Assembly: GCA_964500725.1 (NCBI GenBank) | Contig: CAZCNP010000001.1 | Location: 257,520-321,519 of the forward strand | From: an uncultured Gammaproteobacteria bacterium | GTDB lineage: Bacteria > Patescibacteriota > Microgenomatia > Daviesbacterales > UBA10151 | DNA length: 64,000 bases | Direction of reading: 5' to 3' | Shown: one piece after another, positions 38,598 through 52,179 of the stretch | Position numbering within the stretch: position 1 is the stretch's first letter | Layout: every line of letters starts with the position of its first letter | Position numbers and translations under genes: made by a program | Notes under the pieces: model-generated | What the model saw: the letters and a program-made list of their open reading frames with translations, nothing else | What the model was told of the DNA's origin: nothing | The model's database searches: none

Positions 38598-38843
38598 AAA
38601 GCTTGCAAGGAAAAGGGGTAAAGGGGAAAAGGAATTGCAAGCTTCCGCTGCAAAATACGTAACCTGACGCATTATTGGTCGGCTTCCAAGGCATATCCGC
38701 TTTCCACCTTGGTACTAATCCCTACCTTAAACTTAAATCCTTCAAGGCTTTAAATCTGATGCATGCATTTGCGGTTCGCTTCGCTCAGTCCCGCTTCGCG
38801 GGACTTCGCTAAACAAAAATATATTATTTGGGGGAAAATTTCG
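38598..38843. repeat. left long terminal inverted repeat (about 250 bp, imperfect) of a 13.6-kb segment
   Basis: Reverse complement of 51927..52179: an identical outer block (aaagcttgcaaggaaaaggggtaaaggggaaaaggaattgcaagcttccgct), a divergent middle, and an identical inner block of about 110 bp (…ctgatgcatgcatttgcggttcgcttcgctcagtcccgcttcgcgggacttcgctaaacaaaaatatattatttgggggaaaatttcg). Confidence 0.85.
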
Positions 38844-38955
38844 CTTTTTCTCTTCTATATTGTTTGAATTATTTATTCTAATAAATATTTTTTATCTGAG
38901 TAACAAGTAGGATTGATACATGATTTAGATGATTTAGAGAGAAGGATTGAGGATT

Positions 38956-39729
38956 TTAGGGTTTGTAATTAGGGTAAAAATATTGCCATTCCATATTTTT
39001 GATACTTTGTTGAAAATCCTCAGGTATAGGTGCTTGTATAGTTCTCATATTTAATTTGATAGGATGTTGGAAAGTCAGTTCAAAAGCATGCAACATAGTT
39101 CTAGTAGCTCTAATAGCATCTCCACAATATAAGTAATCTCCCACAATAGGGTGTTTTAGATAGTCTGCTGAAACAACCCTAATTTGGTGGGTTCTACCAG
39201 TAACAATCTGCACCTCAGTTAAAGTTCTTATTCGTCCTTCGCCATCTTTTAAGCAAACAAGGGGTTTAAAAAAGGTGATTGAGTTTTTAGCTCCTGGAGG
39301 AATAAAACCTCTACCCGATTGTTCTGGTGTAACGATCTGCATTCTTTCAGTTTGAGTTGGAGCAATTGGTAATTCCGCTTTAAAAGGCTCTTTAAAATCC
39401 AATTCGCCTTCTAAAATCGCCAGATAGATCTTTCTCATGTTGGATCCTGCTTTGTTGGCAAATTGATCAAACAGCGAGATAAAAGCGGGACGAGTTTTGG
39501 AAAAAACCATTACACCTGTGGTATCTCTATCTAATCTGTTAGCTCGTTGCGTATTCCAACCTCTTAAGTGCTTTGCAATTTCTTCTATTCCAACTGGATT
39601 TACTTCTGAGTAATGAGAAGCAATGCCAGCGGGTTTGTTAATAATCAAAACATCCTGATCTTCATAGAGTACATGTTTATCAAAAGCATTAAGGAATTCC
39701 CAGGCTAATTGGTCTCTACCTGCAAGCAT
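38956..39729 (-). CDS. RluA-family pseudouridine synthase
   Basis: NRLDRDTTGVMVFSKT (catalytic Asp motif) and HQIRVVSADYLKHPIVGD. Confidence 0.8.
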   Translation of the reverse strand: MLAGRDQLAWEFLNAFDKHVLYEDQDVLIINKPAGIASHYSEVNPVGIEEIAKHLRGWNTQRANRLDRDTTGVMVFSKTRPAFISLFDQFANKAGSNMRKIYLAILEGELDFKEPFKAELPIAPTQTERMQIVTPEQSGRGFIPPGAKNSITFFKPLVCLKDGEGRIRTLTEVQIVTGRTHQIRVVSADYLKHPIVGDYLYCGDAIRATRTMLHAFELTFQHPIKLNMRTIQAPIPEDFQQSIKNMEWQYFYPNYKP

Positions 39730-39856
39730 TATATCAGGGTTGCCACCCCTGCGGTTGATTTGATCAAGTAACCATCTGTTAAAATCCTCAGTTGTAGTAG
39801 GATGACCTAGAAGCTCTCCAGAGGCTGAAAAAATAATAGTTCTTTTTGAGGAAATC

Positions 39857-41038
39857 TCAGCTGGATTTTTTTTCCCAACCTGCAGCTAACAATTCTTTAA
39901 CTTGCTTATTTGTTGCAAGAGGAGCTAGTACCCCAAAAACTACTAAAGCATCTTGGTCTTCAACATTAGCAACAAAGGTATTTTGTTTATCTTCTACAAA
40001 CCTAGTCAGTTTTGCTTGCAGAACTGCTTTACTGCGTTCATCTGAAGAACTTTCAACTTGATTGTTTAGGCTGTCTTGAATGCGTTGTAATTCTTCTTTG
40101 TCATCAGCTTTGATTGCAATTCCTAGTTTTTGTAAAATCTTTTGATCTACTTCCCCAAGCAGCCTACTTAAACGGTAAATTTCTGCTTTAGTTAATATTG
40201 GATCCACTTCCAAAACTTCTTGAGTAGGCGCTTCTTCTGGAGTTTGAGTTTGAATTTCAGAAGCATCAGGCTGTGCTATTTCATTAGGTGTGAATATAAT
40301 AGAACCTGAACTCTGAGCAGGTTCTGGTGATTTTGCTGGCAGAGTTACAATAGGTGTCTCAGCTGATTTTTTCGCTTTTGCTGGTCTTGGAGCTTGTTCC
40401 TTTGCTTTTGCGATTGGGATAGATGTGGCTGCTGCGGACTTGATGGACTCAACAGGCTTTGGTTCAAGGGTATAAGTAGCCTTTTCAGTCATATTGGAAG
40501 ACCTGATAGTAGCAATAGTATATCCTTGATCTACCAGTTTTGGTCTGATATTAGTTAAAAGAAGATTAGTATTGTTCTTAGAAATACCTAAGGCCTCAGC
40601 CAATTCAACATTAGTTGGTCTTTTAGTGGGGTTTGATAAAAACCAATCTACCATTTGTGTCTCTCTGGGACTTAAACCGGTGAAGATTGGTTTTACTACT
40701 GGCATTGATGTTTCAACAGGACTCTCTGGAACTGGTGCAGTACTAACAATTGGAGCGGTAGGATGTTCTTCTGGCTTGGTGACTTGGGGTATGGATCTTC
40801 CTAGGTAATCTTCAGCGGGTGGTTCTATACCCAGTCTTTTTCTGATTAAATTATTTATTTCTGGAACTATAACGTCTATTTGTCTAGCTGCTTTAATCTC
40901 TGAACGGACTTGAGTAGCCAGCGTTTCAGCTTCATCAATTCTTCCTTCTCTTAAAAGAACAGCACTTTGTTCAGATAACTGAGAGGCCCTGATCATTCTT
41001 TCTTGCTTAACAGTAAATAGAATTCTTTCAATAGCCAT
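39857..41038 (-). CDS. hypothetical protein with central Pro/Ala-rich linker and HTH-like segment
   Basis: MVDWFLSNPTKRPTNVELAEALGISKNNTNLLL looks like an HTH; low-complexity PA-rich middle; no catalytic motif recognised. Confidence 0.4.
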   Translation of the reverse strand: MAIERILFTVKQERMIRASQLSEQSAVLLREGRIDEAETLATQVRSEIKAARQIDVIVPEINNLIRKRLGIEPPAEDYLGRSIPQVTKPEEHPTAPIVSTAPVPESPVETSMPVVKPIFTGLSPRETQMVDWFLSNPTKRPTNVELAEALGISKNNTNLLLTNIRPKLVDQGYTIATIRSSNMTEKATYTLEPKPVESIKSAAATSIPIAKAKEQAPRPAKAKKSAETPIVTLPAKSPEPAQSSGSIIFTPNEIAQPDASEIQTQTPEEAPTQEVLEVDPILTKAEIYRLSRLLGEVDQKILQKLGIAIKADDKEELQRIQDSLNNQVESSSDERSKAVLQAKLTRFVEDKQNTFVANVEDQDALVVFGVLAPLATNKQVKELLAAGWEKKSS

Positions 41039-41101
41039 AATATCTTATAATAAGTGTAATTTATACACCTTCTATCTATAAAAGTCAAGCCTCAGCTGAA
41101 T

Positions 41102-51150: not shown

Positions 51151-51213
51151 AGTTTAAGTATATGACCATTTAATATATGAAAGCAAATTAAGCAATTTTT
51201 TAATAATTTTTAA

Positions 51214-51656
51214 GCCCCGCAAACCCGCCGTTAAAAGAAAAAAAGGGCGCGGCAGCGCCCAGGGGGGCCGCATCCCGCACCAGAATTGGTGCGGGAAAGG
51301 CAAGCGGTCTTTCAAGACCGCTACCACGCGCCGACCTAAAATATATAGATTTCTCTTTTAGAAGGGAATATTAAAAAAACAGTATTTAATAAGAAAAGTA
51401 ACGGGATGTTAAAAGGCGCGGGGGGCGAGCGAAGAAGGAGGTCAGTTAAAAAGGAAAGAAATATAGAATTTATGGTGGGGTTAATAGGGACTTCTTAAAA
51501 TTCAGGAAGCAAGCCCCCAAAGGCACCCCCCGAGGCAGGTAAAGTTTTTTAGTTGAGCGGCCGACTAACAGGAGGACGCGAAACCCTAAAGATCAGATTA
51601 GTCCTAAGTATTAAAATAAACCAATAGAAAGCAAGCCGATAAGGGGGTATGGGTTT
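51214..51656. ncRNA. GC-rich, hairpin-dense approx. 440-nt region closed by a 13-bp long-range helix (candidate structured ncRNA or replication-origin-like region); strand unknown
   Basis: GCCCCGCAAACCC (51214-26) is the reverse complement of GGGTTTGCGGGGC (51644-56). Internal perfect hairpins: CCCGCACCA-GAAT-TGGTGCGGG, AGCGGTCTT-TCA-AGACCGCT, GGGCGC-GGCA-GCGCCC. No ORF. Confidence 0.35.
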
Positions 51657-51664
51657 GCGGGGCA

Positions 51665-51765
51665 TACCTTAATATTGTTTACCATTATCACCATTAACCA
51701 TTATTAATGGTTACCATTAATGGAGTTAAGCTCAAATCTACCATTGGTATCCATTAATGGATTAC
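51665..51765. repeat. cluster of at least 4 palindromic CCATTAATGG / AACCATTA-T-TAATGGTT repeats (iteron/operator-like)
   Basis: caccattaaccattattaatggttaccattaatgg…atccattaatgg occur within about 100 bp. Confidence 0.6.
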
Positions 51766-51926
51766 TTATGGTGATTAGATTGTTACAACAAGCTAATAAT
51801 GGAAAATATAGAAATATGAATAAATAAAATAAATATTCCATTGAACAATGGGAATGTGATTGGTTGCCTGCGGATGGGAGGCAGGGGCCAAGGGCAACAT
51901 TTTTCTTCCTTTTCCCCTTCTTTGAT

Positions 51927-52179
51927 CGAAATTTTCCCCCAAATAATATATTTTTGTTTAGCGAAGTCCCGCGAAGCGGGACTGAGCGAAGCGAACCGCA
52001 AATGCATGCATCAGATTTAGAGCCTTGAAGGATTTAAGTTTGAGGTAGGGATTTGTAATGAGGTGGGAAGCGAAAATGCCTTGAAAGCCGACACAAAATG
52101 CGTCGATTAAGGTTCAAAGCGGAAGCTTGCAATTCCTTTTCCCCTTTACCCCTTTTCCTTGCAAGCTTTGAAATCCTTA
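51927..52179. repeat. right long terminal inverted repeat (partner of 38598..38843)
   Basis: Reverse complement match described for the left copy; contains hairpin GTCCCGC-GAA-GCGGGAC. Confidence 0.85.

Follow-up and report, generated by a model that had tools for sequence, protein, structure and literature searches.

An integrative element of Microgenomates with a putative serine integrase core inside the recombinase gene and an inverted second attachment site

What kind of unit is a 13.6-kb segment of atypical genes that is enclosed by a long imperfect inverted repeat, sits between a tRNA-Thr gene and rpmG, and adjoins a serine recombinase gene? The segment lies within a 64,000-nucleotide stretch of a Patescibacteria genome (assembly GCA_964500725.1, contig CAZCNP010000001.1, positions 257,520 to 321,519), which is referred to here as the window. 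An earlier note on this DNA took the repeats for the ends of a transposon-like or linear-replicon-derived element, or of a large invertible segment, mobilised by the adjacent recombinase. The segment proved to be foreign and mobile, and the junctions at the crossover core of the recombinase agree with placement by that enzyme, but the repeats are not its ends. Instead, the mobile unit appears to be ~15.6 kb long (~36603-52225), to include the large serine recombinase (LSR) gene itself, and to belong to a family that is common in Microgenomates (Patescibacteria). The integrative-element account as a whole, including the roles proposed below for a spare attachment site, is one that we regard as probable.

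Extent of the inverted repeat

A repeat search of the window recovered the two arms as two pairs, one of 52 nt (38598-38649 / 52118-52169, 100% complementary) and one of 178 nt (38666-38843 / 51927-52104, 93% complementary). The inverted repeat was thus present as first described, together with both of its hairpins, although its length had been put too low at ~250 bp: when the left region was compared with the window by blastn, the homology reached outward to 38536 / 52232 (309 bp, 86.7%, E = 9e-103). The arms are identical at 271 of 318 aligned positions (~85%) and share perfect runs of 52, 21, and 93 nt. What had been reported as an identical inner block of 110 bp is the perfect 93-nt run (38751-38843 / 52019-51927), then one mismatch, then the 21-nt run. 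The same blastn comparison identified a third partial copy, in which 38474-38550 is an inverted repeat of 36595-36671 at the 3' end of the recombinase gene (77 nt, 96%), and weaker homology extends from this pair to 38401 / 36751. An artefact of assembly, which the earlier note had named as a possible refutation, is unlikely: ~15% of positions differ between the arms, and other genomes that were assembled independently show the same layout. The features on which the argument rests are as follows, with Y and Y' denoting the two arms and R and R' the two copies of the recombinase gene end.

36371-36603, + strand: tRNA-Thr(GGT), the integration target, with exons at 36371-36407 and 36566-36603 and a 158-nt structured insert between them
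36551-38122, - strand: LSR gene, 523 aa from a TTG start (517 aa in GenBank)
36595-36671, - strand: R, the putative P' arm of the attachment site, within the LSR 3' end; GC hairpin at 36619-36639
36598-36604, no strand: site A, putative attL core (GCTCC-CA) at the discriminator/CCA end of the tRNA, with the tRNA to its left and R to its right
38401-38547, + strand: R', a decayed copy, in inverted orientation, of the ~50 codons at the end of the LSR gene; hairpin at 38506-38526
38536-38843, + strand: left arm (Y), one half of site B (the other half being R'), which is intact, attP-like, and opposite in orientation to A and C; core 38543-38547, tail exon 38547-38591 (QIYDIARTYFINNF, then a stop), hairpin 1 at 38599-38644, hairpin 2 at 38788-38804
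51927-52232, - strand: right arm (Y'), the element-derived half of site C (putative attR); hairpin 2 at 51966-51982, hairpin 1 at 52123-52168, tail exon 52177-52221 (sense on the - strand; CIYDTARTYFINNY, then a stop), core CTCC-CA at 52222-52227
52233-52586, + strand: host flank with rpmG (52289-52456) and tRNA-Trp (52513-52586), syntenic with the Daviesbacteria loci L024 and L025

Three sites that share one core

The LSR contains the Resolvase (PF00239), Recombinase (PF07508), and Zn_ribbon_recom (PF13408) domains of Pfam, and its top Foldseek matches are full-length serine integrases (9y66, 9dxh, 4kis, phiC31, and Bxb1, each with a probability of 1.0). A long coiled coil is predicted at residues 355-435 in an AF2 model. 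The database homolog P0001 is 100% identical to the window LSR, and exact look-ups of the TTG-start form and of rpmG returned the source genome only.

All three repeat copies switch homology partner at one short core. With a slash at each junction, site A reads from the tRNA as TGTCGGCTCC/CAGCCCCGAG into R, site B (inverted) reads from Y as ATATCTGCTCC/CAATCCCGAG into R', and site C reads from Y' as ATATGCACTCC/CAATCCC/TATTTC into host DNA 63 nt upstream of rpmG. The core lies inside the LSR open reading frame (ORF), 15 codons before its stop, and the last 15 codons of the gene run into the antisense of the tRNA. Judged by their sequences, A, B, and C are the attL, attP, and attR expected of a serine integrase with an attP of the form Y-core-R and an attB composed of the tRNA, the core, and the region upstream of rpmG; the LSR would have recombined such an attP with the 3' end of tRNA-Thr(GGT) to give attL at site A and attR at site C. 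Hybrid attL and attR sites with a short core were confirmed base by base in the window and in three other genomes. Since the left boundary is the tRNA 3' end at ~36603, 1.9 kb to the left of the left arm, the LSR gene belongs to the element. The right arm is half of an attR, and the left arm is internal. The pairs A/B and B/C are inverted and have the core in common, and site B is located 0.3-0.4 kb upstream of the LSR gene.

The location between a tRNA-Thr gene and rpmG stands, although the tRNA that bounds the element is tRNA-Thr(GGT) at 36371-36603 and not tRNA-Thr(TGT) at 35448-35522. ARAGORN misses the former because of its 158-nt insert. In L025 the corresponding tRNA-Thr(GGT) has no interruption, and the two halves of the window gene match it at 95% and 84%; the split gene folds as a cloverleaf plus the insert (z = -5.3). 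A weak Rfam T-arm match (tmRNA/tRNA clan) had raised the reading of the tRNA-like 3' end as a split tmRNA, which was ruled out by the 5' half and the comparison with L025.

An unoccupied target in a relative

The earlier note had proposed a search for an empty site, and one was found, at the level of synteny only, in another Daviesbacteria genome (L025, GCA_016176335.1). There, left-flank genes that match those of the window (Wzy_C, deformylase, formyltransferase, M50 peptidase, and MFS) are followed by tRNA-Thr(TGT) and an intact tRNA-Thr(GGT) 4 nt apart, and ~930 bp past these tRNAs come rpmG, tRNA-Trp, VanW, GH1, PBP, SecE, and NusG, as in the right flank of the window. The two flanks are 1.5 kb apart, and both the recombinase and Y are absent. 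A check of composition, also proposed earlier, sets the element apart from its host: the tetranucleotide distance is 0.0126 for 36598-52227, compared with 0.0074 +/- 0.0006 (maximum 0.0085) for host segments of the same length, and the GC content is similar to that of the host. In the Gr01-1014_7 lineage, which is another genus (L008 and L023, which are one contig), the same tRNA-Thr(GGT) and rpmG landmarks enclose a ~13-kb relative of the element with different cargo.

Other observations bear on this locus. In L025, a ~20-nt direct repeat of the tRNA-Thr(GGT) 3' end (TTCCCGTCTTCGGCTCC, 9133-9150) is found ~65 nt downstream of the gene and looks like a scar left by another element that once integrated at this hotspot and was later excised. 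In a further Daviesbacteria genome (L024, GCA_016180885.1), the sequence upstream of rpmG (1-9900) encodes GIY-YIG, DUF3800, and large unknown proteins, and the 10 kb upstream of rpmG are without Y, the tail motif, or tRNA-Thr. The region upstream of rpmG appears to be a general insertion hotspot. The only match to the attB in the metagenome scan (L022) was a chance 22-mer within a gene of an unrelated organism.

Integrated and un-integrated relatives

Homologs of the LSR number in the thousands in Microgenomates, many of them on contigs of only ~2 kb. Relatives of the element were collected by looking up the contexts of homologs and by scanning whole genomes for the conserved hairpin loop, which yielded independent cases at tRNA-Glu in Curtissbacteria / Daviesbacteria MFDN01 (L016/L015), at tRNA-Gly in another Daviesbacteria genome (L001), at tRNA-Thr(CGT) in Gottesmanbacteria JAUXTO01 (L010/L013), and, in Gr01-1014_7, at the same tRNA-Thr(GGT) as in the window. 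In each case, the LSR 3' end abuts a tRNA 3' end, an inverted R' (36-78 nt, 96-100%) is located 0.3-0.4 kb upstream of the LSR gene, and outward of R' lies a Y that is 85-93% identical to the left arm of the window; the arm of L001, from another species and at another tRNA, is 93% identical. Equivalent copies of R' were identified in L001, L002, and L019-L021. Single genomes also have, on a different contig, a second Y that borders host DNA and has no recombinase with it (L013 and L015), and contigs often terminate at the Y hairpin. The junctions of MFDN01 read GGCGGTAC/CCAATCCCGAG, GATCGCTAC/CCAATCCCGAG, and GATCGCTAC/TGAGTGAGAC.

If the core lies within the gene, LSR homologs should have one of two endings, that of Y or that of a tRNA antisense strand, and this prediction was borne out. 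Of 120 homologs, ~15 are full-length with the ending ..IYDIARTYF.., and most of the remainder end in tRNA-antisense peptides such as ..GIEPATP.. or ..GFEPLT... The two kinds are interleaved, with nearest counterparts 84-96% identical. Where the Y-tailed genes of L019-L021 are encoded, no tRNA is nearby and the LSR cassette is situated between inverted repeats of the Y tail, core, and R (153 nt at 99% in L019, 114 nt at 88% in L020, and 115 nt at 90% in L021). We read these three as un-integrated relatives in which the LSR gene lies between two inverted attP sites. Their layout is the exact product expected from A x C excision of the window element, which would leave an inverted pair of attP sites on one molecule.

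Exact scans of viral contigs with three Y patterns gave no match, and the recombinase family is absent from IMG/VR, whose four recombinase relatives are unrelated to it. Among the homologs, P0002, P0036, P0039, P0087, P0101, and P0106 are ~900 aa long, compared with the usual ~515 aa, and carry extensions or fusions. In L011, the tail/spacer module is tandemly duplicated (530-680), with a partial second unit ending in ..YFSNNF and a stop, and extra sequence is present between hairpin 1 and the tail.

A tail exon in each arm

Every copy of Y encodes the pattern x-I-Y-x-x-A-R-T-Y-F-x-x-N-x-stop directly after the core, in the recombinase-sense frame, so that each arm appears to carry the last 14-15 codons of the LSR gene. 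Among 15 distinct Y copies, mean pairwise differences at the first, second, and third codon positions are 0.22, 0.26, and 0.56 (permutation p = 1e-4), and the two arms of the window differ at 1, 2, and 9 sites, respectively. From this codon-position pattern, the part of the repeat that the earlier note had called diverged is under selection at the protein level in both arms. In an AlphaFold model of a Y-tailed homolog, the tail is predicted to form a helix (pLDDT 74-88) that follows a confident C-terminal helical module. Since the core is inside the LSR ORF and the tail in Y, integration would swap this C-terminal helix for tRNA-antisense residues. A small gene composed of R' and the tail was also considered and rejected, as there is no conserved start and stops occur just upstream in L009 and L020.

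The core is followed by a conserved module of ~290 nt with two hairpins. Hairpin 1 has a near-invariant, purine-rich loop of 26 nt and five stem sequences, each fully paired over 8-14 bp; G-U pairs, in two lineages only, hint at a strand preference. Hairpin 2 has five perfectly complementary stem variants between conserved flanks, and its loop is TTC, so that an initial reading as a UUCG tetraloop was wrong. A third hairpin, the 9-bp GC hairpin of R and R', also occurs in L002, L008, L010, and L019-L021 within the LSR coding sequence. All three show compensatory stem changes. The R hairpin encodes W-S/A-A-L-x-A-D/A-P, and stem covariation couples the residue pair S..D versus A..A, which suggests that nucleic-acid structure constrains the LSR protein here. 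When read from the core, the R/R' hairpin is terminator-like, with that of R' on the - strand. No Rfam family matches either arm, and the RNA folds of the whole arms are unremarkable (z = -1.0 and -2.6), so that only the local hairpins are supported. The outer 77 nt of R' (38474-38550) remain 96% identical to R; beyond this block, R' contains frameshifts and stops and resembles a pseudo-3' end.

Possible roles of the spare attP

The purpose of the second attP we infer from its position and conservation. Excision through A x C would rebuild the full-length LSR gene. Inversion of the 1.9-kb LSR cassette between R and R', whether site-specific (at the cores) or through homologous recombination, would connect the gene with the left-arm tail exon in an element that remains integrated. 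The spare inverted attP would then be a reserve tail exon and attachment site, and possibly an operator or promoter for the LSR gene, and, with a Y on each side of the cargo, the two isomers would be equivalent with respect to the host flank. Two observations argue for cassette inversion: the left-arm tail is translatable only if the cassette inverts, yet it is under purifying selection, and R and R' are 96-99% identical with a sharp boundary. Intramolecular attP x attP recombination has been documented for an A118-family integrase and for CcrAB (PMC3783163). A fuller version, which we put forward tentatively and as more speculation than expectation, is a flip-flop in which the LSR or homologous recombination inverts the cassette in both the free and the integrated element, so that the tail alternates between the native helix and tRNA-antisense residues and sets activity or directionality without a separate factor; amplification like that of the yeast 2-micron circle could follow in the free circle.

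Several findings weigh against the integrative-element account or its extension to the spare attP. A 230-aa ORF lies between the tRNA and rpmG in L025, and a base-exact empty attB of this species was not found in the metagenome scan. No excised or circular form of this element and no flipped isomer of any element was seen in the assemblies, and the Curtissbacteria element has one orientation in all of its assemblies (L002-L007). The family can do without hairpin 1, which the Gr01-1014_7 lineage lacks. Because a promoter-like motif overlaps the tail exon, the exon could owe some of its conservation to constraint on the DNA. For most serine integrases, neither attP x attP nor attL x attP recombination takes place (PMC3783163). 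Scans of the cargo ORFs with Pfam, PHROGs, and PADLOC gave no candidate recombination directionality factor, for which no dedicated test was made.

The role of site B may instead be mainly regulatory. In such a scheme, the LSR would bind the site to control its own promoter, or transcription from an outward promoter in Y would run across R' and yield a short antisense RNA to the LSR 3' end, and after integration the right-arm copy of this promoter would drive rpmG. Both arms have sigma-70-like hexamers in corresponding positions, directed across the core (TTGATA-16-TATCGT at 38581->38554 and TTGATG-16-TATCAT at 52187->52214), the R' hairpin is terminator-like in that direction, and the identity of R and R' stops sharply ~77 nt from the core, after a T run. 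Site B is also upstream of the LSR gene in every state, and in Gr01-1014_7 the Y tail and core of the attR end 25 nt before the rpmG start codon. Against this, the counts from promoter and terminator scans are not above those of shuffled controls, the hexamers overlap conserved codons and so cannot be judged independently, and the right-arm version is weaker. Regulation would also leave the protein-level selection on a tail exon that is not joined to a gene unexplained. We consider this alternative possible but doubtful; it is compatible with the integrative-element account and does not exclude it.

That the 13.6-kb cargo is an invertible segment, flipped as a switch through B x C, is unlikely. 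The arms are inverted and share the core and P arm, their perfect 52- and 93-nt blocks suggest gene conversion, and a site-specific recombinase adjoins; yet a flip would leave both junctions functionally alike (Y next to R' and Y next to host DNA) and would change no relation of a promoter to a gene. The cargo is wholly different between relatives, which fits mobile cargo rather than a conserved switch, and a second orientation was not seen in the assemblies. B x C would moreover be an attP x attR reaction, and we know of no such reaction for the serine integrase class.

Very unlikely, in our estimate, is that site B is a functionless relic of a second, decayed element copy or of a rearrangement. 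R' is indeed a decayed pseudo-3' end beyond its 77-nt block, but the same inverted site occupies the same position at at least 7 independent loci, including the un-integrated forms, the outer 77-153 nt of R' are kept 96-99% identical to R, the tail exon of site B is under purifying selection, and the left arm keeps its high identity to that of L001 across species and target tRNAs.

Scarcely credible, finally, is a transposon of the cut-and-paste or composite type, or the remnant of a linear replicon, with the terminal inverted repeats as its ends (or, as a variant, a repeat that arose in assembly). Long inverted repeats do flank atypical cargo, but the arms adjoin R' on one outer side and host DNA on the other; the core shared there is inverted, no direct one is present, and there is no target-site duplication. 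Domain scans found no DDE transposase, terminal-protein, or polymerase gene, and nothing else indicates a linear replicon. Compared with the empty site, the insertion is bounded on the left by the tRNA at ~36603 and not by 38536-38598, and the arms end exactly at the crossover core of a serine recombinase. Their divergence and recurrent layout make a collapsed or chimeric repeat unlikely.

Comparison with known recombination systems

The closest likeness is to phage-type LSRs (A118/LI Int, phiC31, Bxb1, and TP901-1) and their prophages, which have the same catalytic, recombinase, and zinc-ribbon domains and long coiled coil, and the same site logic of a short shared core, hybrid attL and attR sites, and an integrase gene next to attP. 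The window LSR differs from catalogued members in being only 22-26% identical to them, in having the core inside its own ORF, in being flanked by a second, inverted attP, and in the two-hairpin module that follows the core; the element has no recognisable phage structural cargo, and, as noted, the family is absent from IMG/VR.

The SSV-type 'suicidal' tyrosine integrases of archaeal viruses and plasmids likewise have attP within the integrase ORF, target tRNA genes, and disrupt their own frame (PMC7253208, PMC8371274). These are tyrosine recombinases that are split into two inactive halves, whereas the enzyme described here has a serine recombinase fold, loses only 14-15 codons, and keeps a spare copy of the tail in the inverted second attP. 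Integration-dependent immunity in mycobacteriophage BPs and its relatives is similar in that attP lies inside a gene whose C-terminus is altered by integration (PMC4557955). The state of the element sets the form of the protein; in BPs the gene is that of the repressor and the integrase is a tyrosine recombinase, whereas here the tail of the recombinase itself would be affected. As in Hin and Gin segments, a recombinase gene lies within a short segment bounded by inverted sites (R and R' with their cores, 1.9 kb apart), and the inverted pairs A/B and B/C have a recombinase nearby. Hin and Gin are small serine invertases that use an enhancer and have no integration function. The arrangement of sites and gene in L019-L021 is matched by the FLP/FRT system of the yeast 2-micron plasmid, a circle that is split into two unique segments by inverted repeats with the recombination site in them; the recombinase gene is on one of the segments. 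That system differs in using a tyrosine recombinase and in being eukaryotic, and a parallel to its replication-linked amplification is speculative here.

Literature searches returned no description of an architecture with dual inverted attP sites, an ORF-internal core, and hairpins, and the combination of ORF-internal attP, inverted spare attP, and hairpin module proposed here on the strength of sequence comparison was not found described. Serine integrases are major tools of genome engineering, and the control of their directionality is an active structural topic. The present family would add a natural set of LSRs with thousands of homologs in Patescibacteria and many tRNA 3' ends as targets, in which, beyond the textbook scheme, the core is in the integrase ORF, a helix is lost on integration, and a second inverted attP always flanks the gene. 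Should activity prove to be under the control of the tail or the spare site, the principle of regulation would be both new and simple, and the family would supply many tRNA-specific integrase/att pairs. For the genomics of candidate phyla, the family would explain why assemblies break at a specific hairpin and why ~2-kb recombinase contigs are common, and it identifies mobile islands that bear sigma-factor fusions, diversity-generating retroelements (DGRs), and nucleases.

Cargo and neighbouring genes

The cargo spans 38956-51150 and was scanned with Pfam, PHROGs, and PADLOC, which identified no phage structural, replication, or transposase genes.

38956-39729, - strand: RluA-like protein
39857-41038, - strand: 393-aa protein
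41102-45817, - strand: SNF2-sigma70 fusion, 1571 aa
45824-47515, - strand: 563-aa protein
47579-47815, - strand: truncated SNase
47886-49907, + strand: 673-aa protein
50299-51150, - strand: Pro-rich, DUF5818-like membrane protein
51670-51790, no strand: short palindromes (CCATTAATGG / TACCATTA) in a cluster that separates the last cargo gene from the right arm

The SNF2-sigma70 fusion contains sigma-70 regions 2 and 4 and a winged-helix-like C-terminal part, and matched a PHROG sigma factor (E = 2e-59), PADLOC MzaA (E = 3e-40, partial), and, in part, ZorD. In its place, the Curtissbacteria relative encodes a 465-aa protein with an RNA polymerase alpha-CTD and sigma region 4. These elements may redirect host transcription. 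Only the SNase, the DUF5818-like protein, and the sigma region-4 segment are shared with the cargo of relatives. At 78 aa, the SNase ORF of the window covers residues ~33-106 of the Pfam domain and is probably a truncated pseudogene; L008 and L019 have a 170-aa version. The cargo of the Gr01-1014_7 element includes a DGR reverse transcriptase and bAvd, AAA_5, and SNase, with the DGR (L008 7635-9425 / L023 1-561) composed of the reverse transcriptase, bAvd, and three 124-nt repeats of 81-84% identity.

The palindrome cluster may be a candidate origin or protein-binding array, and CCGTWACGG repeats are found at the equivalent place in L023 (9690-9800). GC-rich hairpins occur at 51200-51330, among them a terminator-like one at 51245-51260.

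Outside the element, the 158-nt insert of tRNA-Thr(GGT) (36408-36565) lies between anticodon-loop position 38 and the 3' anticodon stem, is rich in hairpins, and forms an extended anticodon arm. It matches no Rfam family and is not a group I intron, and the gene is uninterrupted in the relatives L008 and L025. The insert may represent a small intron that has escaped recognition, or else a miniature insertion by which the tRNA is inactivated. Between the two tRNA-Thr genes, which in L008 and L025 are only 4-6 nt apart, the window has a 276-aa ORF (35577-36407, + strand) with HNH-endonuclease-like PHROG matches and a helix-turn-helix, the last 12 codons of which enter the 5' half of tRNA-Thr(GGT). 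This ORF looks like a separate insertion of the homing-endonuclease type at the same hotspot.

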